A DNA stretch of 32,000 bases, from NCBI RefSeq assembly GCF_000009965.1, contig NC_006624.1, positions 1,470,001-1,502,000 of the forward strand, read 5' to 3'. The DNA comes from Thermococcus kodakarensis KOD1. Lineage in GTDB: Archaea > Methanobacteriota_B > Thermococci > Thermococcales > Thermococcaceae. This document shows, one piece after another, positions 6,852 through 31,145 of this stretch; the stretch's first letter is position 1, and the number at the start of each line of letters is the position of its first letter. A program made the position numbers and the translations under genes. The notes under the pieces were generated by a model. The model saw only the letters and a list, made by a program, of their open reading frames with translations. It ran no database searches and was not told the origin of the DNA.

Positions 6852-6911
6852 ACCGATGAGGAGTGTCATCCCTCCTGATGTCGAGATGATGACATTATCC
6901 CCACCTGAGGT
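6852..6911 (+). ncRNA. Candidate C/D box sRNA (2'-O-methylation guide)
   Basis: The layout is C box ATGAGGA (6856-6862), a 12-nt guide GTGTCATCCCTC, D' CTGA (6875-6878), a 7-nt spacer, C' ATGATGA (6886-6892), a 12-nt guide CATTATCCCCAC, and D CTGA (6905-6908). Flanking acc/ggt can pair. The exact 12-nt spacing on both halves is the archaeal hallmark. Confidence 0.65.
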
Positions 6912-14169: not shown

Positions 14170-16224
<2,055 letters not shown>

Positions 16225-16267
16225 AGTCTTTTAACCCTCTCTTCTTTTCTTCCTTGAGGTGGTTGGA

Positions 16268-18022
16268 ATGAGAAGGGTTCTCGCTACTATACTCATTGTG
16301 GGCTTTATGCTCTCTCTCATCTCCTCACCCGTTCTTGTCTCGGCTGAAATCAGGCCGTACGTTTACGAGCCTACAGTTCCGGACACGGCCTTTGCTGTTC
16401 TCGCCCTCTACAAGACAGGCGATTACGACAGAGTTCTGGAAGGCTGTGAGTGGCTCATGGCCATTAGGACGCCCTTTGACTCCTGGGGCTACGCTTACAG
16501 CGAGGAGCACGAGGCCAAATACACAGCTATGGCAATAATGGCACTCATCAGAGGAGAGAGCATAGCCAACGGCAGGTATAAGGATGTTATCAACAGTGCT
16601 GCATATTGGCTCATATACAAGCAGAAGGCCGACGGCTCCTGGGACGACTACCTTGATGCCGCTATGGCTGCCATAGCCCTGAAGGAGCTCCTGGGAAGCA
16701 AATACGTTGAAGAGAACATGACGGGACTTGAAGACCAGCTCAGGGAAGGTTTGAACAGAGCACTTGGCTGGCTTCAGATTAATGAACCAGAAAACGACGT
16801 GGAGAGAATATTCCGTGACATTGCGCTGGAGGATAAAGATGACCTTGAGAAGCTTAATGTTGAGGGTGAGCTGAAGGCCTACAAAGCCTTTGCACTCGCT
16901 TACCTCGGAGAAAAGGTCTCACTGGAAGGGAACTTCTCATCGCCGATGGCCGTTGCGATGGCGCTTTACGCGACAGGAGATGAAAAGTACAGGGAAGAGC
17001 TCCTCGATATGGAACACTTCGGCTTCTGGGGAAGGCTCCACTACCGCGTCCTCGACCTGCTCGACGTCTCCCAGATCAGCGGCTTTGAAGAGCTCAGAGA
17101 AATTGCCTGCCCATACCTCGAAAAAATCCCCGCCACTGAAGAGTGGCAGAAAGCGGTTTATGCCCACTACTTTGTCCTCTGCTCAAAAGAGCCGGAGCTC
17201 CCTGAGAACTACAGCTCTCTCCTTCCCTGGCAGGTAGCGGAAGTTGCGAGGATAAAGGCCCTCCTCGGAAAGCCCTACGACGATGCAGTTGAGTACCTTC
17301 TCTCCAGCCCGAATAACGGAACCTGGAAGGACTTTTACAACACCGCCTACGTCGTCTGGGTGCTCAAGAGCCTCAACGTTTCCTACGACTACGAAAAGTC
17401 TCTTCACTACCTTTCGGCTAATCTCACGTGGATGCTGAGCGAAAAGAATTCAAAGACAGGAGATCCTGTTTACTACTCGATACCGACTTACTACTTCTCG
17501 CAGGCAGCCATAGTTTTCAGCCAGTTTGGAATGAAAGATGAGCTGAACAAGACTCTCGAAGTCCTGAAGGAAAGACAGTATCCCAACGGAGCTTTTGCTT
17601 ACACCCACCAGTCGGTGACGGGTATAACAACAACAGCCAGAGTTGTCTGGAACCTTGAGGTGGCGGGATTGACTGACACTGAAATTTACAGAAAGGGTGT
17701 GGCTTTCCTGAGAGATATGCTCTACGCGGAAATTCCAGAGGTAAAGCCGGAGATGGCCAATACCACTTTCCTTAGGGTAGATGAGGGGAAATACGTCGGC
17801 AACACCACGGGAAGAGTGAATCCAACTGGACTTGACGGGTACGTTGCGATTTACCCCCCAAAGAACCCCCTGATGATAAAGGCAGTTGCCGTGGAGGGCT
17901 TCAGGGCAGAGAGCCCGTGGAAGAACCGCGGACTTCAGCATGCTCTAGTAATCGTCGCGGTCGGGGTGCTTCTCGTTGCTATGTACGGCGTAGTCTGGTT
18001 TGAGAACAGGAAGAAGAGATGA
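16268..18022 (+). CDS. Surface protein with signal/TM N-terminus, C-terminal TM anchor and alpha/alpha-toroid (prenyltransferase/terpene-cyclase-like) repeats
   Basis: Shows recurrent T/Y-A-x-A-(L/I/V)-x-A-L helices and DGSW/NGAF/NGTW turns. The C-terminus is VIVAVGVLLVAMYGVVWFENRKKR. GAGGTG precedes ATG 16268. Confidence 0.75.
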   Translation: MRRVLATILIVGFMLSLISSPVLVSAEIRPYVYEPTVPDTAFAVLALYKTGDYDRVLEGCEWLMAIRTPFDSWGYAYSEEHEAKYTAMAIMALIRGESIANGRYKDVINSAAYWLIYKQKADGSWDDYLDAAMAAIALKELLGSKYVEENMTGLEDQLREGLNRALGWLQINEPENDVERIFRDIALEDKDDLEKLNVEGELKAYKAFALAYLGEKVSLEGNFSSPMAVAMALYATGDEKYREELLDMEHFGFWGRLHYRVLDLLDVSQISGFEELREIACPYLEKIPATEEWQKAVYAHYFVLCSKEPELPENYSSLLPWQVAEVARIKALLGKPYDDAVEYLLSSPNNGTWKDFYNTAYVVWVLKSLNVSYDYEKSLHYLSANLTWMLSEKNSKTGDPVYYSIPTYYFSQAAIVFSQFGMKDELNKTLEVLKERQYPNGAFAYTHQSVTGITTTARVVWNLEVAGLTDTEIYRKGVAFLRDMLYAEIPEVKPEMANTTFLRVDEGKYVGNTTGRVNPTGLDGYVAIYPPKNPLMIKAVAVEGFRAESPWKNRGLQHALVIVAVGVLLVAMYGVVWFENRKKR

Positions 18023-18025
18023 AAT

Positions 18026-18056
18026 TCTTTCTCTTTTTTAAATTTAAAATAAATCA
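18026..18056. terminator. Bidirectional oligo-T terminator region between convergent genes
   Basis: A T6 run at 18034-18039 lies downstream of the + strand gene. AAAATAAAT at 18046-18054 gives T-runs on the minus strand downstream of bpsA. Confidence 0.45.
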
Positions 18057-18063
18057 GAAAGGC

Positions 18064-19119
18064 TCAGGTAGTCGAGCTCTCCTCGTCGTCGTAGAGCTCC
18101 TGACCGACGGTTATCTCGTCCTCGAAGCCCTTCGAGCCCTCAAGGGTCTGGATCCTGAACATGTAGCTCTTGTACCAGTTGTAGCTCGGCTTTACCTTTA
18201 TCGGAAGGAGCCTCCAAGCCCTCGTCTCCTCGACGTAGCCCCAGTTGACGTACTCATTGAAGTTCCTGATGATGTCGGTAATGACGACGCCGAACTCGTT
18301 GAGGAGAACCCTCTGTATCTCCCTCCACTTGTCGAGGGAGCTCTCTCTTCTAGTTATTCCAAAGTAGCCGGCGCAACCTGGCCCCTTGAGGGTCGCTATG
18401 CCTCTTCCCACGAAAGCCCTGATGGCTTCAACCGTCTCGGGCGGGTCCGTGATAAAGGTGTCGAACTTGTGGAGCGCGTAGTCGGGGAGCGGCTTCCTGA
18501 GGTCGAAGGTGAATATCTCGATGTTCTCGTAGCCTATCTCGTCGGCGGCCTTCTCGATGAACTTCGTGAGCCTCTCGTCTATGTCGAGGACGGCTATCCT
18601 CTTCGGGAGACCGCTGAGCATCAAAGCGACGCTCGTGAGGTCATCGTCCCCGAGGACAAAGACCTCCTTGTTCTCAAGGTCGCCCCTGCTGTGCATAAGG
18701 GCAACTCTGGCGACGGTGGTCTCTGGAGTGACGTAGGCCTGGTCGAACTGGTGGGCCGGCTCGGGCCTGTCCCTGGTTATCTCCTTGAACTGCTCGAGAA
18801 GCTCGGAGAAGGCGTCTATCTCAACCGTCCTTCCCTGGCAGTGGGAGCAGGTGTAGTCAGCCCTGGGGCCGATTCCATACTTCTCCACCAGCTCCTTGCC
18901 CTTCCTCGTGAGGATCACCTGGTTGTTCTCAAAGGCCACGTAGCCGAGCTCGTAGAGGGCAGTAACGACAGCAACGACGAGCGGAAGCGGCTCCTCGCTG
19001 AGGTCAACGATCCTCCAGACGTCACCGCTGGCCTGAATGGCGCTCAGAACATTCTCTATCGTCCTCTCGTAAACGGGAATGGTCGTCTTCTCCTTGACCC
19101 TCTCAATTATCTCCCTCAT
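18064..19119 (-). CDS. bpsA: N4-bis(aminopropyl)spermidine synthase (branched-chain polyamine synthase, DUF43 family)
   Basis: The 351 aa product has an N-terminal wHTH-like part, CSHCQGR, and a methyltransferase-like aminopropyltransferase core (VFVLGDDDLTS, ITDPPET). It matches my memory of BpsA (TK1691). Confidence 0.85.
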   Translation of the reverse strand: MREIIERVKEKTTIPVYERTIENVLSAIQASGDVWRIVDLSEEPLPLVVAVVTALYELGYVAFENNQVILTRKGKELVEKYGIGPRADYTCSHCQGRTVEIDAFSELLEQFKEITRDRPEPAHQFDQAYVTPETTVARVALMHSRGDLENKEVFVLGDDDLTSVALMLSGLPKRIAVLDIDERLTKFIEKAADEIGYENIEIFTFDLRKPLPDYALHKFDTFITDPPETVEAIRAFVGRGIATLKGPGCAGYFGITRRESSLDKWREIQRVLLNEFGVVITDIIRNFNEYVNWGYVEETRAWRLLPIKVKPSYNWYKSYMFRIQTLEGSKGFEDEITVGQELYDDEESSTT

Positions 19120-19227
19120 ATCTCACACCTCCAGAAGGATTCTTGGTTCGTAAAAGAACCTTGTGGAGGCCCCTTTTAAGGGTTTTCCCGCCGGCAGATT
19201 TTAAAGCTCATTCCTGAATTTAACCCC

Positions 19228-19968
19228 ATGCTGAAGCCGGTTGGAGAGGACTTCGTGAAAAGGTACCGCCTAGAGTACAACCTTGAGGCGCTTAAAAGGG
19301 TTAGAAGAGACATCGGAGAGATTGCCCATACTCGTTTGAGAGCCCTGATAGAGTACCGCTTGAGCGGGAAGGACTTCGACCGCTCTCCGACGGGAGCAAA
19401 AGTGGCCGTAGCGTTCTCAGGAGGATCTGACAGCACTGCCACGCTGAAGGTGCTTCGCTGGGCCGGTTTTGATGCGATCCCCATAACGGTTAAACTCCCC
19501 CAGATGGGAGAAAAGACCCTCGAAAAAGCCCGGAACTATGGGGCTGTTTTCATCGAAATTCCGGAATATTTGGATATCATACGGCCCCAGATTGAAAAAG
19601 GTGCCCCGATCTGCGGCAGATGTCACGCTCTTGTAATGAGTGCAGTTGAGGGATATGCCAGAAAATCCGGAATAAAAATCGTTGCCTCCGGGGACATGCT
19701 CAGTTCCGGCTTGATCTCTATCTACCAAAAAGAGGACCTTGTAATTCTCAACCTTCCAGCGTTTCTGGCGCTGGACAAGGCTGAAATTATCGAGATAATT
19801 GGTGGGGACTACGATCTCAAATTCGGCTGTCCCCTTCTCTGGGAGCTGTTTAGAAAAGCTCCTTCAACCAAGAGGCTTTCCATCCAGAGGGTTCTGAGGG
19901 AGACGAGGGCAAGGGCTTTGAGGCCCGGGATGGCCAGGGAACTGATACTCGACATCCTCTCCCGCTGA
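19228..19968 (+). CDS. PP-loop ATP pyrophosphatase family protein (adenine nucleotide alpha-hydrolase, COG2117-like)
   Basis: Carries the SGGxDS motif (VAFSGGSDST) and a CGRCH motif. The transcript is possibly leaderless, because TTTTAAA (19200-19206) lies about 25 nt upstream of the ATG. Confidence 0.85.
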   Translation: MLKPVGEDFVKRYRLEYNLEALKRVRRDIGEIAHTRLRALIEYRLSGKDFDRSPTGAKVAVAFSGGSDSTATLKVLRWAGFDAIPITVKLPQMGEKTLEKARNYGAVFIEIPEYLDIIRPQIEKGAPICGRCHALVMSAVEGYARKSGIKIVASGDMLSSGLISIYQKEDLVILNLPAFLALDKAEIIEIIGGDYDLKFGCPLLWELFRKAPSTKRLSIQRVLRETRARALRPGMARELILDILSR

Positions 19969-23441: not shown

Positions 23442-24404
23442 TTAAAGTTGTTGGTATTCGTAGACTGTGTCGCCGTCCGCTATCGAATAGACGTCGCCCT
23501 CATTACTGCCGTCGTGGACTATCGGCCTGTCCACAAGCTCAAAGACCCTCTTAAGGTCTTCGGGAGTTTTGAGTTCGACTTTTCGTGTTCCTTCAGGGGA
23601 TTTGCCTTCAACTACATACTTCCTCAGTGAAGCAAGTTCGTCTTTGGGCTTCTTCTCTCTCTTTGAGTAGACAAAACCGAGCGGTGGAACCGCGAAGAGC
23701 AGGGCCATGGCGGGAAACACCTTTCTCGCAGTGGAGTCCTTAACGCTCGTCCCAACGAAGCCAACGCTGTTTTCAGTTATACTTACATTCCTCTCAACTT
23801 TCTGGTAGTCCTTGGTCGCTCCGTCAAGGCTCAGCATTCCTGAAGTGTCTTTTTTCAGCTGGATCTTCTGTGTGAATGGTTCACGTCCATTTATACTGAC
23901 AGTAACAGTTAGATAAACTTCGTTCTCGGCCCTGTGCAGGTCAGTGCCTTCCCGTATCTTTTTGAGCTCTTCTCCAAGCGATGTCATGTTAAACTTCACT
24001 GGAACCGAGAATGAACCGGCGAAGTTCCCCGATGCTATCTCAGTCGTCCTGTTGAGCAGGTAAACTGGCTTCCTGTTCACCGAGACGTAGTAGTTTGAGT
24101 GCATCTCTATTTTATAACTGCCTGAAGCCCCAGGTGACGTTGAGTACCTGTATTCTCCTCTTATTACGTCGGTTATCCCCGAGGGATAATACTTCAGCGA
24201 GGTGCCGTTCTGGTAAACGGTCTCGTTCGAGAAGAGGGCGTAGTGCCTCAGTGAACCACCTTCAGAATAGGCGGTAGTGTAACTAACATCCCTGGTTGAC
24301 ACCGGCGTTGCGTAAGCTATAACCGAGTAAACACCAAAAAGAACCGCCAGTGAGAGTGAAATTCCAAGGCCCGCAATCAGGGCCTTCTTTTTATTTACCT
24401 TCAT
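23442..24404 (-). CDS. Bitopic/two-TM membrane protein with a large extracellular domain and small cytoplasmic C-terminal domain (DUF5305-like by memory)
   Basis: The N-terminal TM is ALIAGLGISLSLAVLFGVYSVIA and the second TM is VFPAMALLFAVPPLGFVY, followed by about 70 aa of charged tail. It is the last gene of the co-directional cluster, and GGAG precedes the ATG. Confidence 0.8.
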   Translation of the reverse strand: MKVNKKKALIAGLGISLSLAVLFGVYSVIAYATPVSTRDVSYTTAYSEGGSLRHYALFSNETVYQNGTSLKYYPSGITDVIRGEYRYSTSPGASGSYKIEMHSNYYVSVNRKPVYLLNRTTEIASGNFAGSFSVPVKFNMTSLGEELKKIREGTDLHRAENEVYLTVTVSINGREPFTQKIQLKKDTSGMLSLDGATKDYQKVERNVSITENSVGFVGTSVKDSTARKVFPAMALLFAVPPLGFVYSKREKKPKDELASLRKYVVEGKSPEGTRKVELKTPEDLKRVFELVDRPIVHDGSNEGDVYSIADGDTVYEYQQL

Positions 24405-24423
24405 CTAAACCAACTCCAAATCT

Positions 24424-25371
24424 TCAATCGTCGTCTGAACAGGCGACGCTAACCTCTATTCCGTTGCTCCTTCCCGGGTAGCCGTCTATAGTTGCCCCGT
24501 CGTTGAGTGAGTAAGTGCCGCATGAGGTGAACTCCTGCTGGTTGCCGTTGTTAACCCTTGTGAATATCGTCACGTTGATGTGCTCGCTTCCTCCAGCCGG
24601 AACTAATACTTTCCACTTCATCTTGGTTGCAGGATGAGAGTTCCCGTTCTGTGAATTTCCGTTTCCATTGCCGTTTCCCTGGTTAGCGGCCCAGAAGCTG
24701 TACGTTCCCGAGCTCGCCGAGACTTCCGAGAGGCTGACGTTGAACTCAGCTGGTATGGTGTCCCTGACCGTTAGGTTCAGGTCGTTGTCAGTTGGGTTAG
24801 AGACTTCTATCTGGAACGTCCACTCCTGGTAAGTCTTCAAAGGTATGTCGCTCGTGTTTCCCGAGAGCAGAGTCTTCGTTATTCTCGGATCGTCGAGAAC
24901 GGTAATCTTTACAGGGCAACTCTCAATCACCGCGCCCCCTCCGTCCCAGGTGGCGTAGATCGTGACCGGAACGTAGTACTCTCCAGGTGTGGCCGAGCTG
25001 GCCGCAACGTGTCCACCGAAGGTATGTGAGTCCCCAGGTGCTATGTCAACTGGTGTTCCCGTACCGCTCTCAACGTCCAGATACATTCCAGCTGGAACAT
25101 AGCAATAAGCCGGTTCCAGAGTAATGCTCACGTACTCGTTTGTTATGAGCTGGTTCTCCAGCGTCATTACGTCGAAGTCCTTTCCTTCCCCATTCAGAAC
25201 TATAACTGACGCAATCTCGCCGTCCGAACAGTTAAAGCCCACGTATTCGTCCTCGTGGGAGACGACCATTACGCTCGCCGCTCTGGACGATGAATATTCC
25301 CTGAAATTCCCGCTGGAGCCCACGATGAGGAAAGCCCCCATCAGGAAAACAAGAACTATAATTGCTTTCAT
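24424..25371 (-). CDS. Secreted protein sharing the post-signal NFRxY motif, with a DUF11-like repeat region and a GN-repeat
   Basis: The signal region is MKAIIVLVFLMGAFLIVGSSGNFREYSSSRAAS. It also carries LTVRDTIPAEF and GNGNGNGNSQNGNS. Its start overlaps the peptidase stop in ATGA (25368-25371). Confidence 0.8.
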   Translation of the reverse strand: MKAIIVLVFLMGAFLIVGSSGNFREYSSSRAASVMVVSHEDEYVGFNCSDGEIASVIVLNGEGKDFDVMTLENQLITNEYVSITLEPAYCYVPAGMYLDVESGTGTPVDIAPGDSHTFGGHVAASSATPGEYYVPVTIYATWDGGGAVIESCPVKITVLDDPRITKTLLSGNTSDIPLKTYQEWTFQIEVSNPTDNDLNLTVRDTIPAEFNVSLSEVSASSGTYSFWAANQGNGNGNGNSQNGNSHPATKMKWKVLVPAGGSEHINVTIFTRVNNGNQQEFTSCGTYSLNDGATIDGYPGRSNGIEVSVACSDDD

Positions 25372-26444
25372 AACCTACCATCTCCCGTTAGTTTGGATAA
25401 AATCTTCCCCTTTCTTATTGAGATCATCTCTCCCGAAATCCCGGAGATCCAGTAAAATGCAAGCATCAGTACCGAGAGTGGGATCAGGTACAGCACCAGC
25501 GGGAAGTACGGGCTGATTGAGTACGCCCAGTTTATCAGGCTGTAAGGCAACAGAGCCGGGTATGACCACACAGATACTTCTTCCCTGTAAATCCGGGTGT
25601 CCACCGGAACGGTCACGGTGAGGCTGAGGTTCTGGGCCTCTCCGCCCCCGAGACGGAAGCCGGTTGTTTTCAGCTCGACCCTACCACTGTCATCCTTGAA
25701 GAAGTAGTAGAACGGATAAACCGCGTGGTTCTCAACGCTGAGGTTCTTCTCAAAGGTTGTTCCGGGTAAGTGCCAACCATCAGTCTGTCCTCCGGCCAGG
25801 GTCGAGGAGTACGTAAACGCCAGCGTCCCCCATGATGCAATGATGACCGCCAGAAAACCCGAGATTATGAGGACTGAGACTATCCCGTAGAGTGTTTTTC
25901 CCTGAATTCTGATGAACCTCCGGCGTTTTGACCTTCTTCTGCTTCTCTCCTTTGAGCTTCCAGAGAAAGTGAGCAGGCCGCCGAGGATCACTATTATCAC
26001 TATGGCATAGACGTTCGTCAGCCTTTTCCTGAGGTTCACTATGAAATCCCCACCGCCCCTGATCACCAGGGGATGGTTTGAAATCTGGACTACTTTTCCA
26101 GCAATATCAACATGCTCAACCTCGGGATACGCCCCATCCTGCTGGTCTGTAGCAACGTTGTGGTCCCCTTTGGTTATGTACTTTCCATCAACAATTGCAT
26201 AAACCCTATGGACTGTCCAGCCATCTCTTCTGTGGAAGACTATAATATCCCCAACCTCAGCATTCCTTGAAAGGGGGTTTATGAAGAAGAGGTCGCCCTT
26301 GTTGATCGTGGGCGTCATGCTCTCAGAATAGGCATAAGATACTAGAATCGGCCTGTCAAGGATGAACCCCACCACTGAGGCTACGAGTATCATAAAAATT
26401 ACGGCTGTAATAATGCCTTCGAGCAGTTTTTTCATCCTTAACAT
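25368..26444 (-). CDS. Signal peptidase I (ER/archaeal/SipW type) fused to a C-terminal multi-TM plus beta-rich extension
   Basis: The catalytic boxes are YSESMTPTI (Ser), GDIIVF, WTVHRVYAI (His) and KGDHNVATDQQD. These are followed by about 200 aa containing 4 hydrophobic helices and an RRRSKRRR loop. The start is ATG 26444 or 26435; the longer track ORF overlaps the upstream gene. Confidence 0.88.
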   Translation of the reverse strand: MLRMKKLLEGIITAVIFMILVASVVGFILDRPILVSYAYSESMTPTINKGDLFFINPLSRNAEVGDIIVFHRRDGWTVHRVYAIVDGKYITKGDHNVATDQQDGAYPEVEHVDIAGKVVQISNHPLVIRGGGDFIVNLRKRLTNVYAIVIIVILGGLLTFSGSSKERSRRRSKRRRFIRIQGKTLYGIVSVLIISGFLAVIIASWGTLAFTYSSTLAGGQTDGWHLPGTTFEKNLSVENHAVYPFYYFFKDDSGRVELKTTGFRLGGGEAQNLSLTVTVPVDTRIYREEVSVWSYPALLPYSLINWAYSISPYFPLVLYLIPLSVLMLAFYWISGISGEMISIRKGKILSKLTGDGRL

Positions 26445-26487
26445 CTCTTCAAGATTAACAAAGTGAGGCAAAGGCCTCAAAAGGAAA

Positions 26488-27027
26488 TCACGGGCTTCCG
26501 CATTCGCCTGCAACGGCCTCAAAGCTGAGCTGGAACTGATCCATGCCGAGGCTTGCGTTGGTGTTGTCAAAGATCATACCAACTGGCACGGGGTCTCCGT
26601 AGTTGACCGTGAACTCGAGGTTGTTTGACGGCCCTGCTATCGGACTGTCGTAGTCTCCTGCAAAGAGCAGGACGTTGTCGTGGTTGCTCTTTATGGTAAC
26701 ACAGATCGGATAGTTTGTCTGGTTGTTCTCCCAAAGGTCGTTGCTTACCTCGAACATTTCCTCAAAGACGTAGGTGGTGTTCGGGCTCATGCCCGTTCCG
26801 CCCCAGTCGGGGTGGTTCGGGTTATATTCGCTTATGTCCACGTAGAGCTTTCCAGCGTCGTAGGTCACGTAGGGCTGGAGTGCGGTCAGGTCAATAAGTT
26901 CGTTGTCGTCGGAGACGACATCGAAGCTCGCAGTCCTGTCGGCGGAGTAGTACCTAAAGTTAGCACCCGCGCCGACGGCCAGGAGCATTCCAACCATTAA
27001 CAATGCCAATCCAAATAGTTTATTCAT
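26488..27027 (-). CDS. Small secreted protein, paralog 1 (candidate fibre/pilin-like subunit; DUF1102-like by memory)
   Basis: The class-1 signal peptide is MNKLFGLALLMVGMLLAVGAGA, followed by NFRYYSADR. It shares DDNELIDLT, VDIS..NPN.P, FEVSNDLWE and a C-terminal GECGSP with the next gene. GGAGG is the RBS. Confidence 0.85.
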   Translation of the reverse strand: MNKLFGLALLMVGMLLAVGAGANFRYYSADRTASFDVVSDDNELIDLTALQPYVTYDAGKLYVDISEYNPNHPDWGGTGMSPNTTYVFEEMFEVSNDLWENNQTNYPICVTIKSNHDNVLLFAGDYDSPIAGPSNNLEFTVNYGDPVPVGMIFDNTNASLGMDQFQLSFEAVAGECGSP

Positions 27028-27041
27028 CTTTCATTCCTCCT

Positions 27042-27638
27042 TCACGGCTGACCGCAGTTTCCAGCTATCTCAGCGGGCTCTGTGCCGAGCCTGTAGGCTT
27101 CAATGTGTACCGCTGCGTTGTTGGTTGTACCTGGTGCGTCGTTCGCGACGGTAAAGTCCATACCGACCTTAACCGCGTCTCCGTTGTTCACAACAAAGCA
27201 GACGTCGTTCCTCGCCATGTCGCTGGCGTAAACTGTCTGGCCGGTTGTGCTGTCGTGGACGTCAAACTCATGTCCGTAGAACTGGATCATGGTGTTGTCG
27301 CTGGTTATCCTTACGACTATCGGCATTCCCTCTTCCCATAGGTCGTTGCTGACTTCAAACACTTCATCGAAGTTGTACTCTGAGTTCGGGCTCAGGCCCA
27401 TTCCATATCCTGGGTAGTTCGGGTTGTTCGGGCTTATGTCCACAACTAGGACGCCGCCATCGTTAATGTACGCGTAGGGCTGAATTGGAGTCAGATCGAT
27501 GAGCTCGTTGTCATCGGTCACGATGTTCCAATGAACGCTCCTGTCCGCGTTGTAGTCCCTGAAGTTAGCTCCAGCCCCCAAAACGAGGCCAAAGGCCACC
27601 AACAGGCCAAAAATTCCCAAAGCAAGATTCTTTTTCAT
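27042..27638 (-). CDS. Small secreted protein, paralog 2 (candidate fibre/pilin-like subunit)
   Basis: MKKNLALGIFGLLVAFGLVLGAGA is followed by NFRDYNADR, and the C-terminus is GNCGQP. The GGAGG RBS lies at 27645-27650 (minus strand). The 42-codon N-terminal extension in the track ORF is not credible. Confidence 0.85.
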   Translation of the reverse strand: MKKNLALGIFGLLVAFGLVLGAGANFRDYNADRSVHWNIVTDDNELIDLTPIQPYAYINDGGVLVVDISPNNPNYPGYGMGLSPNSEYNFDEVFEVSNDLWEEGMPIVVRITSDNTMIQFYGHEFDVHDSTTGQTVYASDMARNDVCFVVNNGDAVKVGMDFTVANDAPGTTNNAAVHIEAYRLGTEPAEIAGNCGQP

Positions 27639-27825
27639 TTTTTCGCCTCCTATACGGAGGCACTGTGGTACGGAAGCAGGTTCCGAAATACCAGAGGTGT
27701 TTCGACACCACATCGGTGGGCAACACAGTGCCCTTGGCGGACGACCATTACGGTCGCTCCACAATCACATGGGTCCTTCAGATATATATGAAGTTGGGGA
27801 TTACCACATAGTAATCAGTCATTAC

Positions 27826-28317
27826 CTACACATTATCCTCTGATTTTTCAGGGTTTTTTCGCTCCCTTGGTCTGGCTATGAGGTACGTCCTCCTGTGCTG
27901 TATGGCAGATACTACCAGATAAGTCACTGCAGCAAAGAGGAGGAGGACGTTGCCGAGCCATAGGGCCATGAGGGCAAAGATAACTGAGAGGCCAGCATAG
28001 AACACGCTCCAGCTTATGTCGTTCTTCTGGACAACTTCCATGTAGAGGGTGACGTTGTCAGGAACCTTGAGGAGGGTTATCCTCCCTCTGCTGAAAGTCA
28101 CAATTCCCTCCCTCTCAAGCTTTGGCAGGTGCGTCTGCATAAGGCTGACATAGACGCTCTTCCTGTGTTTTCTGTCGGTGTTGCCCTCCCTCTCGGCTAT
28201 GTACTCCACAACATCCCTGAGCTCAGCGCTCCCGTTTTTCCTCTGGAGGAACTCTATGAGGAGCATCCGCCTCTTGTTGCCGAGTATCATCCTGGAAGGA
28301 GCTTTATTGCTAGCCAT
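27826..28317 (-). CDS. Membrane-tethered winged-HTH regulator (N-terminal wHTH, two C-terminal TM helices)
   Basis: The wHTH segment is LLIEFLQRKNGSAELRDVVEYIAERE...SVYVSLMQTHLPKLEREGIV. The TM segments are WSVFYAGLSVIFALMALWLG and VLLLFAAVTYLVVSAI. Confidence 0.75.
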   Translation of the reverse strand: MASNKAPSRMILGNKRRMLLIEFLQRKNGSAELRDVVEYIAEREGNTDRKHRKSVYVSLMQTHLPKLEREGIVTFSRGRITLLKVPDNVTLYMEVVQKNDISWSVFYAGLSVIFALMALWLGNVLLLFAAVTYLVVSAIQHRRTYLIARPRERKNPEKSEDNV

Positions 28318-28323
28318 AGCTTA

Positions 28324-28545
28324 TCATCTCACCCTGTAGTGCTTTCTCTTGTTGTAGAAACCACTGTTGTAAAATGCCTCCACCACACCCCTCGAGACAA
28401 GATCCCTCAAGACCCTCTCAACTCGCTGACGGGTGCATTCAACTCCCATCTCGTTCAAGAACCTAGTGATAAAAGCAACGCTTAAGGGGCCCTTTTTCTT
28501 CAACAGGGCAATGATCTCGCCTTCAAGGTTTACATTTCCATTCAT
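28324..28545 (-). CDS. Small winged-HTH DNA-binding protein
   Basis: The 73 aa product carries IIALLKKKGPLSVAFITRFLNEMGVECTRQRVERVLRDLVSRGVV. It ends 6 nt upstream of the next regulator gene. Confidence 0.65.
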   Translation of the reverse strand: MNGNVNLEGEIIALLKKKGPLSVAFITRFLNEMGVECTRQRVERVLRDLVSRGVVEAFYNSGFYNKRKHYRVR

Positions 28546-28944
28546 TCTCTCACCTTCTTGTAATTACATGATTTAAAAATGAGACATCATTCTCAACAAG
28601 TTACTAAAATCCCACTTAACACCTATTAGGCGCACCTCCTTAAAAGGGTTCTTAAAAAGTTCGATTTGCGCGCTTTTTAGTCCTGAAACAGTTTTTTGAT
28701 GGCAAATTATGGGAAAAGTCCAACAGTTGGGCTGCAAGAATAAACCCCTGCCCATTGGGTTCTGCAGTTAAATATCCCCTGAGCTTCTCCCACTGGGAGC
28801 TAAGAGGACATTACTTAAACTAGAAAACAACAAAAACTTCAGGGGATTTCCAACTGCAGGGACATAGTATAGTTATTTTCCAGAAGGGGGATTACAAAGG
28901 AGAGTAAAACACGGGGTTCGAAGTTCATCTGGAGCCCAGTTGAA

Positions 28945-29703: not shown

Positions 29704-30654
29704 TCACCCCTCAAGAAGCTCCTTAACCGTTCTTCTGACGGCCTCGTAGCTGTTCATCTTTGGTCTCCAACCGGTGGACTTGGCCTTGCCTATGTCGAGG
29801 AGCATGAGCTTAACGTCGCCCTTCCAGCCCCTTCCGCCATCTACCCCGCCAGTAAAGCGGAACTTCGGGCTCAACCCCATCTCCTCGCTAACTATTTCTG
29901 CTATCTCCTTCACTGTTATCCAGTCGTCGTTGCCAAGGTTATAGACGTCGTAGGTCTCGCCGCTTTTCTTGAAGTGTTCGAAGATGTGGAGCATTCCCTC
30001 AACGGTGTCGCTCACGTGGAGGTAGCTCTTCCTCTGAGTTCCATCTCCAAGGATTTCCAGCTCGTTCGGGTTCTTCCGCAGTTTGTTGATGAAGTCGTAT
30101 ATAACGCCGTGGTTCGAGCGCTTGCCGATGATGTTCGCCAGGCGGAAGCTCAAGGCCTTAAAGCCGAATATGTGGGCGTAGCCACTTATTATAGCCTCAG
30201 CCGCGAGCTTTGCACCACCGTAGACACTTATCGGCTTAAGAGGGCCGTAGCTCTCAGGAGTTGGAATGACTTCAGCATCGCCGTAGACCGTTGAGGAGCT
30301 CGTGAAGACGAGGTATTCAACGTCGGAATTCCTCATAGCCTCCAAGAGGTTGTAGGTTATCGTGACGTTGCTTTCGTAGAGCGTTTCAGGGCTCTGGGCG
30401 CTGATTCTAACTTCAGGGTTAGCCGCGAGGTGGAAGACAACATCAACGCCTTCAATGGCCTTTTTTACGGTCTCGAGGTCAACCATGTCACCTTTTATGA
30501 ACTCGAAGCGCTCGTTATCGAGCCAGTGCTTTACGTTGTCCAAGCTCCCGGCGCTCAGGTTGTCCAGAACTCTGACCTCATAGCCACTCTCCATCAGCCC
30601 GTCAACGAGGTGGGAACCGATAAAGCCAGCACCGCCCGTAACTAGGACTTTCAT
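29704..30654 (-). CDS. NAD-dependent nucleoside-diphosphate-sugar epimerase/dehydratase (GalE-like)
   Basis: MKVLVTGGAGFIGSHLV is a Rossmann motif and YGGAKLAAE is the YxxxK motif. ATG is at 30654; the 37-codon extension in the track ORF is not credible. Confidence 0.92.
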   Translation of the reverse strand: MKVLVTGGAGFIGSHLVDGLMESGYEVRVLDNLSAGSLDNVKHWLDNERFEFIKGDMVDLETVKKAIEGVDVVFHLAANPEVRISAQSPETLYESNVTITYNLLEAMRNSDVEYLVFTSSSTVYGDAEVIPTPESYGPLKPISVYGGAKLAAEAIISGYAHIFGFKALSFRLANIIGKRSNHGVIYDFINKLRKNPNELEILGDGTQRKSYLHVSDTVEGMLHIFEHFKKSGETYDVYNLGNDDWITVKEIAEIVSEEMGLSPKFRFTGGVDGGRGWKGDVKLMLLDIGKAKSTGWRPKMNSYEAVRRTVKELLEG

Positions 30655-30737
30655 GTGCACCATCACCCATGTAGTTATCGAGGTCACGTTATTAAACTTT
30701 GGGAAAAGCTTTTTTACTCTAACGTTTAAGTTAAACC

Positions 30738-31145
30738 ATGATGAAAATCTATGACATTCCCCCACAGGGAAGGGAGAAAATAAAAGTGAAAATTCAAGAA
30801 GCCCTCATGAGAAGAGAGGAAGTTATATTTGCTTATCTCCATGGTTCTTTCATCGAAGATAGGCCGTTCAGAGACATTGATGTAGCCGTTTACGTGAAGG
30901 AGAAGCTAGATATATTCTATGAAATGACGCTGGAGGATGAACTTACTGAACTAACGGGGTTTCCCGTTGACGTCCGGGTTCTGAACGAGGCCCCTATTAC
31001 TTTCAGGTTTAAGGTCATAGGCGGAGAACTACTGTTCTCGAAGGATGAAAAAGCAAGGTGCAGGTTCGAGGAAGAGACCATGGCAGAGTACCACGATTAC
31101 TCCTACTACCTCGAACTCTACGGGAGGGAGGCCCTTGGAATATGA
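30738..31145 (+). CDS. Minimal nucleotidyltransferase (MNT/MntA-type antitoxin, Pol-beta superfamily)
   Basis: The GS-x(n)-DxD motif is present (LHGSFIEDRPFRDIDVAVYV). The product is 135 aa and is followed immediately by a HEPN gene. Confidence 0.88.
   Translation: MMKIYDIPPQGREKIKVKIQEALMRREEVIFAYLHGSFIEDRPFRDIDVAVYVKEKLDIFYEMTLEDELTELTGFPVDVRVLNEAPITFRFKVIGGELLFSKDEKARCRFEEETMAEYHDYSYYLELYGREALGI

Follow-up and report, generated by a model that had tools for sequence, protein, structure and literature searches.

TK1701-TK1707 of Thermococcus kodakarensis KOD1, a likely Sec-dependent relative of the haloarchaeal Tat-fimbriae system

Introduction

What do the seven closely packed genes TK1701-TK1707 of Thermococcus kodakarensis KOD1, a hyperthermophilic archaeon, encode? 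The genes lie within a 32,000-nt stretch of contig NC_006624.1 (positions 1,470,001 to 1,502,000), which is referred to here as the window and whose numbering is used throughout. An initial annotation, made from the letters of this DNA alone, had filed them as a TasA/SipW-like locus for a secreted surface fibre that is independent of the type IV pilus machinery. The fibre part of that proposal is supported by pilin homology, a dedicated peptidase and synteny, whereas the TasA/SipW family label does not hold. The cluster is likely to be the haloarchaeal Tafi (TafA-G) fimbria or bundling-pilus system in a hyperthermophile form that uses Sec for export.

The haloarchaeal system is known from experiments. 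In Haloarcula hispanica, the filaments termed Tat-fimbriae (tafi) are lost on deletion of tafA or tafD, TafA accumulates unprocessed when TafD is missing, and deletion of pibD has no effect; TafD is not needed for viability and acts specifically in the processing of TafA (PMC11821415, iScience 2025). The structure of the TafE filament of Natrinema sp. J7-2, determined by electron cryo-microscopy, displays strand donation, and TafE has a role in the formation of biofilm (PMC12337348, PNAS 2025). With TafD as the query, taf-like gene clusters were found in Thermococcus, Pyrococcus and Archaeoglobus (TSIB_1247-1254, AF_2076-2083, TK_1701-1707 and PH0561-0565; Figures 7-8, 7C/8C of PMC11821415). 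That paper lists TK_1701 (DUF5305), TK_1702 (~300 aa), TK_1703 (peptidase), TK_1704 and TK_1705 (DUF1102) and TK_1707 (regulator), and it models AlphaFold heteromers of TK proteins with donor-strand exchange. In a phylogeny, the Sec-type homologues of Archaeoglobales and Thermococcales are basal to the Tat-type haloarchaeal clade (PMC12337348).

The locus and its reading as a taf-like cluster have thus been known as a prediction since 2025, and our finding is not new, since the same locus is published in PMC11821415. The initial annotation had held that nothing of this kind was characterised experimentally in Thermococcales. This agrees with the literature searched, in which we found no experimental characterisation of TK1701-TK1707 or of a Tafi-type filament in this order, and in which TK1701-TK1706 are mentioned in the Tafi context only in PMC11821415; the broader impression of novelty does not survive, because the locus was modelled there and the TafE homologues of Thermococcales were analysed in PMC12337348.

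Results

The DUF1102 subunits TK1705 and TK1704

TK1705 and TK1704 belong to the Pfam family DUF1102 (E 1.2e-60 and 9.5e-59, respectively) and share 42% identity over their full length (E 5e-44). The blocks DDNELIDLT, VDIS..NPN.P and FEVSNDLWE and a C-terminal G-x-C-G-x-P are common to both proteins, as had been described for two small paralogues with signal peptides. Against the NCBIfam models, TK1705 scores 25.4 bits for TafA and 16 bits for TafE, and TK1704 scores 14.2 bits for TafA. A search of 1.84 billion representative proteins with a DUF1102 profile returned 509 sequences at E ≤ 1e-3; of these, the distant ones are acidic, bear a twin-arginine signal and contain the motif GTGAF(S/T)SVxA(D/E)R. 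When 39 of these distant matches were sampled, all 39 matched NCBIfam TafE and 37 matched TafA, below the narrow equivalog cutoffs. Alignment of the DUF1102 profile with a profile of the Tat-type, TafE-like proteins by hhalign gave a probability of 99.9% (E 5e-34) over 185 columns. The haloarchaeal profile in turn retrieved 9P0A from the PDB ("Pilin", 215 aa; E 1.2e-27), which fits the Natrinema TafE pilin. The link to 9P0A runs only through this haloarchaeal intermediate profile; when TK1705 itself or the DUF1102 profile was searched against PDB sequences, all matches were spurious, a phage tail protein and adiponectin among them.

The AlphaFold2 model of TK1705 (predicted local distance difference test, pLDDT, 83.6) is an all-beta sandwich that follows the signal helix, with low confidence exactly at residues 22-31, the post-signal box described below. 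The best Foldseek match of this model in the PDB is the bundling pilin AbpA of Pyrobaculum calidifontis (7UEG; E 1.6e-4, probability 1.0; TM-scores 0.33/0.36, 14% identity). FimA type 1 pilins occupy ranks 2-5 and 7-9, and Hyper2, which forms cannula-like tubes, is also among the best. All of these (AbpA, FimA and Hyper2) assemble by donor-strand complementation. TK1705, the first and most conserved paralogue, is a candidate for the major subunit, and TK1704 for a minor or adapter subunit.

We also noticed very long proteins (P0454, 2409 aa; P0430, 1831 aa; P0362, 835 aa; P0339, 666 aa; and others) that start with a full DUF1102/TafE-like module and a GTGAF..V.A.R box. Judged by their sequences, these may be fusions of a donor-strand module to giant adhesin-like proteins, which could cap or decorate fibres.

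The signal peptidase TK1703

With 63.3 bits, TK1703 exceeds the cutoff (51.85) of TIGR02228, the model for archaeal signal peptidase I. Among 28 homologues, S39 (within SxSMxPT), H76-R77, D91 and D97 are invariant, and the alignment contains no catalytic Lys box. The invariant S39, H76 and D91/D97 together with the missing Lys box identify TK1703 as a peptidase of the ER/SipW type, in agreement with the initial annotation. Transmembrane-like segments are located at residues 1-35, 137-162, 179-208 and 306-335, and the N-terminal catalytic domain is complemented by a second extracytoplasmic domain (~210-305), in which the block WGT..F.YSSTLAGGQ.EGWYLPG is also invariant among the 28 homologues. 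BLASTP aligns TK1703 with a haloarchaeal TafD-like peptidase over 318 aa that cover both domains (27% identity, E 2e-31).

The reverse comparison was made in 79 hypersaline metagenome loci with TafE-like genes, using hidden Markov models (HMMs) built from the Thermococci and Archaeoglobi cluster proteins only. The TK1703-family HMM detected 20 two-domain peptidases (E down to 1e-49) in these haloarchaeal loci, and an HMM of the C-terminal domain alone detected 16. The bacterial peptidase-DUF5305 fusions mentioned in PMC11821415 prompted a comparison of the C-terminal domain of TK1703 with TK1701; homology between the two was ruled out (hhalign probability 1.3%).

The membrane protein TK1701 and the regulators TK1706 and TK1707

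TK1701 matches Pfam DUF5305 (E 7.4e-11). It consists of an N-terminal transmembrane segment, an extracytoplasmic domain of ~190 aa, a second transmembrane segment (residues 229-247) and a cytoplasmic tail of ~70 aa. In KOD1, TK1702 alone separates its gene from that of the peptidase, and in most of the loci from Thermococci and Archaeoglobi the last gene of the cluster is of the DUF5305 type. In the haloarchaeal loci, a TK1701-family open reading frame (ORF) directly follows the peptidase in 15 of the 15 loci where one was detected, and the one checked against Pfam is a DUF5305 protein. DUF5305/TafG has been proposed in the literature to assist the peptidase, and the constant pairing of the two genes suggests that TK1701 assists cleavage or assembly.

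TK1706 matches Pfam DUF7344 (E 5.8e-19) and has a hydrophobic, transmembrane-like stretch at residues 101-142. The haloarchaeal regulator TafB is described as having two transmembrane helices and a cytoplasmic domain (PMC11821415). In the haloarchaeal taf-like loci, 45 ORFs were matched by the TK1706-family HMM, with E values as low as 1e-30 and usually beside the first pilin gene, and TK1706 is 34% identical to such a DUF7344 neighbour over 148 aa, the transmembrane part included. Position and architecture, rather than the HAH_0241 sequence, lead us to take these haloarchaeal matches as TafB. TK1707 shows weak matches to helix-turn-helix (HTH) domains of the TrmB/GntR type, and in many Thermococcus loci its gene is found upstream of a TK1706-like one; the TK1707-family HMM found no match in the 79 haloarchaeal loci. 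In PMC11821415 the probable TafB analogue is TK_1707, and TK1706 is absent from the genes listed there. These comparisons lead us to favour TK1706, and not TK1707, as the conserved membrane-tethered, TafB-like regulator, and TK1707 is probably a local regulator specific to Thermococcales. The membrane protein and the local regulators that the initial annotation proposed are supported, the former as an accessory protein; the "membrane platform" role that it gave to this 320-aa protein, here DUF5305/TafG, is putative.

A published differential RNA sequencing (dRNA-seq) study of T. kodakarensis (PMC4247193, supplementary table S7) records 717 reads for TK1707 in the control made without terminator exonuclease (TEX) and 13-96 in the TEX-treated libraries, while its neighbours stay low. 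The TK1707 transcript may be mostly processed, carry a 5´-monophosphate or be unusually stable.

The tip-like protein TK1702

TK1702 has no family match in scans of Pfam and NCBIfam. It resembles the two DUF1102 paralogues only over the first ~42 residues (1-44 in the comparison with TK1705), which comprise the signal peptide and GSSGNFREYSSSR (E 3e-5); a common N-terminal module had indeed been read from the 315-aa protein before. In its AlphaFold2 model (pLDDT 82.4), residues 1-42 are disordered and are followed by two tandem immunoglobulin-like (Ig-like) beta-sandwich domains, for which Foldseek retrieves integrin leg domains, C-domains of streptococcal antigen I/II (AgI/II) adhesins and Ig domains of PrgB. 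A gene of this type lies downstream of the peptidase gene in nearly all related loci. TK1702 is a candidate for the tip or initiator subunit and thus for an analogue of TafC; it is called a structural analogue of TafC in PMC11821415, and it does not match the NCBIfam TafC model. A Sec/SPII lipoprotein signal has been reported for TK_1702 (PMC11821415). The N-terminus (25230-25371), however, contains no Cys before residue 48 and hence no lipobox, and has the box in common with TK1704 and TK1705, so that TK1702 is more likely a substrate of TK1703 than a lipoprotein.

The loop NQGNGNGNGNSQNGNSH of TK1702 (24622-24681, residues ~231-250) is rich in Cys and His in many Thermococcus homologues, for example GGCGHCGGGHGGHHG, and several homologues have Cys/His-rich C-terminal tails. 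Such stretches may point to metal binding on the presumed tip subunit.

Conservation of the gene cluster

In Archaeoglobus profundus, Pyrococcus yayanosii and Palaeococcus ferrophilus, the homologue of the peptidase lies in one and the same gene layout, (HTH)-DUF7344-two or three DUF1102-peptidase-variable protein-protein of ~310-330 aa, with unrelated flanks. To these 3 loci, which were looked up, 46 were added from a scan of species-representative genomes of Thermococci and Archaeoglobi (all metagenome-assembled genomes), and the seven proteins of the window served as phmmer queries to annotate the resulting 49 loci. In essentially all 49, the genes keep the co-directional order 1707-1706-1705-1704-(third DUF1102)-1703-1702-1701. 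The peptidase gene lies inside the cluster in 49/49 loci from at least three genera with differing flanks, and a second DUF1102 paralogue is present in every locus with enough flank. The pyrophosphatase-RpoE-DUF359 flank of the KOD1 cluster is common to 11 Thermococcus loci only, and the conserved unit is therefore the module of five to seven genes itself. This survey, which the initial annotation had proposed as a check, removes its worry that the neighbours might prove unrelated across genomes.

A third DUF1102 paralogue of ~150-170 aa lies directly upstream of the peptidase gene in 24 of 47 loci (e.g., L003:6519-7004, L014:2893-3408 and L015:7504-8001). Its N-terminus is hydrophobic and leads into a motif such as ..KPIPVVYA.., and the post-signal box is never present; the paralogue is probably a TafF-like terminator or anchor.

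Signal peptides and the post-signal box

The N-termini of TK1705, TK1704 and TK1702 (MKKNLALG..., MNKLFGL... and MKAIIVL...) are ordinary n-h-c signal peptides without a twin-arginine (RR) motif, followed by GAGANFRDYNADR, GAGANFRYYSADR and GSSGNFREYSSSR, respectively. A small-residue c-region (GAGA or GSSG) comes after the hydrophobic core, which does not correspond to class III signals, and beyond the signal helix the models contain beta structure only; the exclusion of class III signals by the initial annotation is thereby upheld. The consensus of the post-signal box is G-x-x-[GA]-[NTD]-F-x-x-[YF]-x-[AS]-x-R. In 62 DUF1102 homologues A24, F26 and R33 are invariant, as is the subsequent D42-D43-x-E45-x-I47-x-L49 (TK1705 numbering), and in 37 TK1702 homologues G18, S19, S20, G21, F23 and R30 are nearly so.

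Counts were drawn from the 49 independent loci with a strict regular expression. The box is found in 47/47 orthologues of the first DUF1102 paralogue, in 46/47 of the second and in 28 of 41 TK1702-like proteins, most of the other 13 being close variants by eye; none of the 24 third, shorter paralogues has it. The box thus sets the polymerising and tip subunits apart from the box-less third paralogue, a distinction that is not made in PMC11821415.

In the profile alignment, GAGA-N-FRDYNADR of the DUF1102 proteins lies opposite GTGA-FSSVQAER of the haloarchaeal Tat-type pilins, and the TK1705 box aligns with their GTGAF..V.A.R. Mass spectrometry puts the N-terminus of mature TafA at Phe30, where SignalP had predicted another site (PMC11821415), and this residue is aligned with the Phe of the box. 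Together with the homology of TK1703 to TafD and the fact that only the three secreted proteins of the cluster have the box, this points to cleavage by TK1703 at the box, predicted either as GAGA|NF, which fits the -3/-1 small-residue rule, or as GAGAN|F. The box of TK1705 is predicted to lie at the start of a donor-strand segment.

Comparison with other fibre systems

The KOD1 cluster and the Tafi system have in common homologous pilins, a two-domain peptidase with four transmembrane segments (TafD), a DUF5305/TafG protein, a DUF7344 regulator (TafB) and, as a candidate, a two-domain tip-like subunit that shares the N-terminal box, for which G-x-G-A-(x)-F-x-x-[VY]-x-A-x-R describes both. Neither relies on class III signals or PibD. 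They differ in export, as the TK proteins have Sec signals of the signal peptidase I type and the haloarchaeal proteins twin-arginine signals; such Sec-type relatives were already recognised in PMC11821415 and PMC12337348. The TK genes form a single co-directional, operon-like order, whereas the haloarchaeal layout is shuffled and partly divergent. KOD1 also has no TafF-like anchor, and it differs in a tip protein that the TafC model does not match and in the additional winged-helix gene TK1707.

The comparison with TasA and SipW of Bacillus subtilis holds as an analogy only, and Tafi is the correct family. The three secreted proteins have no match to Pfam Peptidase_M73/TasA at E ≤ 1. The SipW-cognate signal model, which we take to be TIGR04088 and presume to be part of the searched library, likewise gave no match at E ≤ 1 in TK1702, TK1704 and TK1705, a search in which the HMMER filters may lose very short matches, and none at E ≤ 1e-3 among the 39 haloarchaeal relatives. 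TK1703 scores 25.5 bits (E 8.4e-6) against the SipW equivalog NF046067, the cutoff of which is 190. No PDB chain of TasA was among the matches of the DUF1102 profile at E ≤ 10, and a structural comparison with TasA, as suggested in the initial annotation, placed AbpA first and TasA outside the top 50 Foldseek PDB matches of the TK1705 model. What the TasA/TapA/SipW system shares with the KOD1 cluster is a fibre subunit, a nucleator or accessory protein and a dedicated ER-type (Ser/His) peptidase, with Sec export and an aromatic residue just after the cleavage site; TasA is cited in PMC12337348 as exchanging donor strands through its new N-terminus (Bohning 2022). TK1703 differs from SipW in its extra extracytoplasmic domain and transmembrane segments and in its pairing with a DUF5305 protein.

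AbpA (7UEG) and the Sulfolobus threads are Sec-dependent donor-strand bundling filaments of hyperthermophiles, as is proposed here. AbpA nevertheless has a low TM-score against the TK1705 model and no sequence match to it; the TafE topology (BID and CHGEF sheets) is unlike the AbpA jelly roll (PMC12337348), and the loci for AbpA pili and threads are without tafD and tafG homologues (PMC11821415). The FimA chaperone-usher pilins resemble the proposed subunits in having an Ig-like fold that is completed by a donor strand, whereas the archaeal cluster has no periplasmic chaperone, usher or outer membrane, so that assembly must occur at the cytoplasmic membrane.

Organisation of the locus

The seven ORFs are co-directional on the minus strand, and their products match BAD85890-BAD85896 exactly (Table 1). 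All seven are intact and preceded by sequences that resemble ribosome-binding sites. The intergenic gaps in gene order are 6, 187, 14, 52 (43 with the alternative ATG of TK1703), -4 and 19 nt, the overlap being an ATGA that joins the stop of TK1703 to the start of TK1702. The packing, the gaps and the ATGA overlap reported in the initial annotation were all recovered in the sequence. The TATA-like ATATATAT in the 187-nt gap is a candidate promoter of a TK1705-TK1701 unit.

Table 1. Genes and sequence features of the TK1701-TK1707 cluster (window positions)
Feature	Position	Strand	Description
TK1707	28324..28545	-	73 aa; BAD85896; small soluble winged-helix/HTH protein
TK1706	27826..28317	-	163 aa; DUF7344 winged helix and hydrophobic hairpin
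TATA-like ATATATAT	27782..27789	-	187-nt gap, 5´ of TK1705; read from sequence
TK1705	27042..27638	-	198 aa; DUF1102, TafA-TafE-like subunit (candidate)
Post-signal box of TK1705, G21-R33, GAGANFRDYNADR	27540..27578	-
TK1704	26488..27027	-	179 aa; DUF1102, TafA-TafE-like subunit (candidate)
Post-signal box of TK1704, G19-R31, GAGANFRYYSADR	26935..26973	-
TK1703	25368..26435 (alternative start 26444)	-	355/358 aa; TafD-type signal peptidase I
TK1702	24424..25371	-	315 aa; secreted, two Ig-like domains
Post-signal box of TK1702, G18-R30, GSSGNFREYSSSR	25282..25320	-
TK1701	23442..24404	-	320 aa; DUF5305 membrane protein, TafG-like

Upstream, the cluster is bordered by a divergent tRNA-Gln/tRNA-Arg pair, and on the downstream side come genes that encode inorganic pyrophosphatase, RpoE' and a DUF359 protein. 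The ~400 nt between TK1707 and tRNA-Gln (28546-28944) hold no convincing gene, the only ORF being one of 60 aa (28573-28755); a TATA-like ATTTTTAAAT lies ~30 nt 5´ of the TK1707 start. A gene for an NAD-dependent sugar epimerase/dehydratase (29704-30765, minus strand) lies just upstream of the KOD1 cluster, and such a gene is upstream in three related loci as well, two of them from Archaeoglobus (L003:3647-4567, L007:3416-4360 and L022:4570-5601). This neighbour could be linked to glycosylation of the subunits or be a coincidence. Elsewhere in the window, three consecutive plus-strand ORFs of 587, 386 and 246 aa (16259-18022, 18019-19179 and 19228-19968), which have no Pfam match at E ≤ 1e-5, lie directly 3´ of the Tk-SP subtilisin gene (14170-16224), and the C/D-box small RNA sR55 (Rfam RF01307, 75.6 bits) is found at 6852-6910 on the plus strand.

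Expression and alternative explanations

Several results weigh against a Tafi-type fibre in KOD1. The scores of TK1705 and TK1704 lie far below the equivalog cutoffs (190 bits for TafA, 155 for TafE), so that the two proteins are distant homologues and not equivalogs. The TM-scores of TK1705 to known pilins are low (0.33-0.36), and the Natrinema pilin 9P0A does not appear among the 50 best Foldseek matches of the TK1705 model in the PDB; a self-complemented monomer model, as against a filament subunit in the open form, is one possible reason for this absence. The KOD1 window contains no third, box-less DUF1102 paralogue and no TafF match, and with this terminator or anchor missing the anchoring of a fibre is unexplained; the third paralogue is likewise absent from 23 of the 47 related loci. 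In the dRNA-seq table cited above, the counts of TK1702-TK1706 are very low under four planktonic conditions: the DESeq baseMean over two pyruvate libraries is 4-30 (8 for TK1705), with similarly low raw counts on sulfur, compared with ~5 to ~5,000 for the first 46 protein-coding genes of the same table. Finally, no filament of this type is reported for any Thermococcales species in the literature searched. The low counts suggest that the system is switched off in planktonic culture; this fits an attachment or biofilm fibre and would explain why nobody has seen a filament.

The low expression, the missing TafF-like protein and the low TM-scores would also suit secreted or cell-surface proteins, for instance adhesins or proteins of the envelope, with the DUF1102 proteins and TK1702 served by a dedicated peptidase and no fibre formed in Thermococcales, and some TafE homologues are indeed predicted to form non-filamentous assemblies or no oligomers (PMC12337348). 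We regard this as unlikely, since at the profile level the subunits are homologous over their full length to a pilin whose filament has been solved, and since the box and the next strand are strictly conserved in two paralogues and the tip-like protein, as expected of donor-strand partners; published AlphaFold2 oligomer models of the TK proteins also contain strand exchange (PMC11821415). The same read counts and the absence of a third DUF1102 paralogue could mean that the KOD1 copy is a silent remnant, intact in appearance, that has lost its terminator or anchor and its expression. That is very unlikely, given seven intact ORFs with sequences like ribosome-binding sites and proteins that share 83-92% identity with their counterparts in T. 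stetteri and T. peptonophilus, the nearest of the named species; moreover, the third paralogue is absent from nearly half of the related loci, and low planktonic expression is expected of a biofilm or attachment fibre.

Descent is a separate matter. If the locus belonged directly to the TasA/TapA/SipW family, with subunits homologous to TasA or camelysin and a SipW orthologue as peptidase, the ER/SipW-type Ser/His residues of TK1703 and its weak match to the SipW model would be accounted for, and so would the post-signal A-x-F-x-D pattern, which resembles the N-termini of TasA and TapA. Yet the subunits match neither Peptidase_M73 nor the SipW-cognate model, TasA is missing from both the PDB profile matches and the top Foldseek matches, and the SipW score is a small fraction of its cutoff; SipW, moreover, is not known to have the second domain and the three extra transmembrane segments of TK1703. 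Even with the best fold match, AbpA, being described as TasA-like (PMC12337348), such direct membership is highly improbable. It is hardly credible that TK1703 is a general housekeeping signal peptidase among unrelated secreted proteins: it does pass the generic archaeal model, and the literature searched has nothing on a second signal peptidase I in KOD1, but the archaeal model has 158 positions and TK1703 is an atypical protein of 355 aa with four transmembrane segments and two domains, is translationally coupled to the tip-protein gene and stays within the same cluster in every one of the 49 loci, and TafD is dispensable and TafA-specific (PMC11821415).

Discussion

A Sec-dependent Tafi-type system remains the reading that we consider likely for TK1701-TK1707, and its steps can be proposed as follows. 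Judging from their signal peptides, TK1705, TK1704 and TK1702 would be exported by Sec. TK1703, the TafD homologue, probably together with the TafG homologue TK1701, would cut them at the box. The freed N-terminal segment (~R33-T41 in TK1705, with the alternating residues R-S-V-H-W-N-I-V-T) would then serve as a donor beta-strand that inserts into the open sandwich of the next subunit, as in TafE. TK1702 would sit at the tip and nucleate the fibre, with TK1704 as the adapter and TK1705 as the shaft, or the reverse, and TK1706 and TK1707 would control expression. Tentatively, and with low confidence, TK1703, the second domain of which is conserved, and its obligate DUF5305 partner may be more than a signal peptidase and act as a fibre assembly machine. 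The pair would recognise the box of tip, adapter and shaft subunits and couple cleavage at the membrane to strand insertion, thereby replacing the chaperone-usher function where no outer membrane exists. The box-less third paralogue, not being cleaved alike, would be a membrane-retained terminator, and genomes without it, such as KOD1, would shed their fibres into the matrix.

As the result of a genome scan this adds little, and the remaining interest is experimental. Beyond PMC11821415, the analysis adds TK1706 as a regulator, a TK1702 without a lipobox, the distribution of the box and the near-silence of the fibre genes. If the proposal is true, the filament would be the first Sec-dependent one of the Tafi type to be seen in a hyperthermophile, in a form that is probably ancestral to the Tat-dependent pili of haloarchaea (PMC12337348). 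T. kodakarensis is genetically tractable, and questions that concern the whole family are therefore directly testable in it: the roles of the second peptidase domain and of DUF5305, the exact cut in the precursor, polymerisation at a cytoplasmic membrane with neither chaperone nor usher, and attachment and biofilm formation at ~85 °C.

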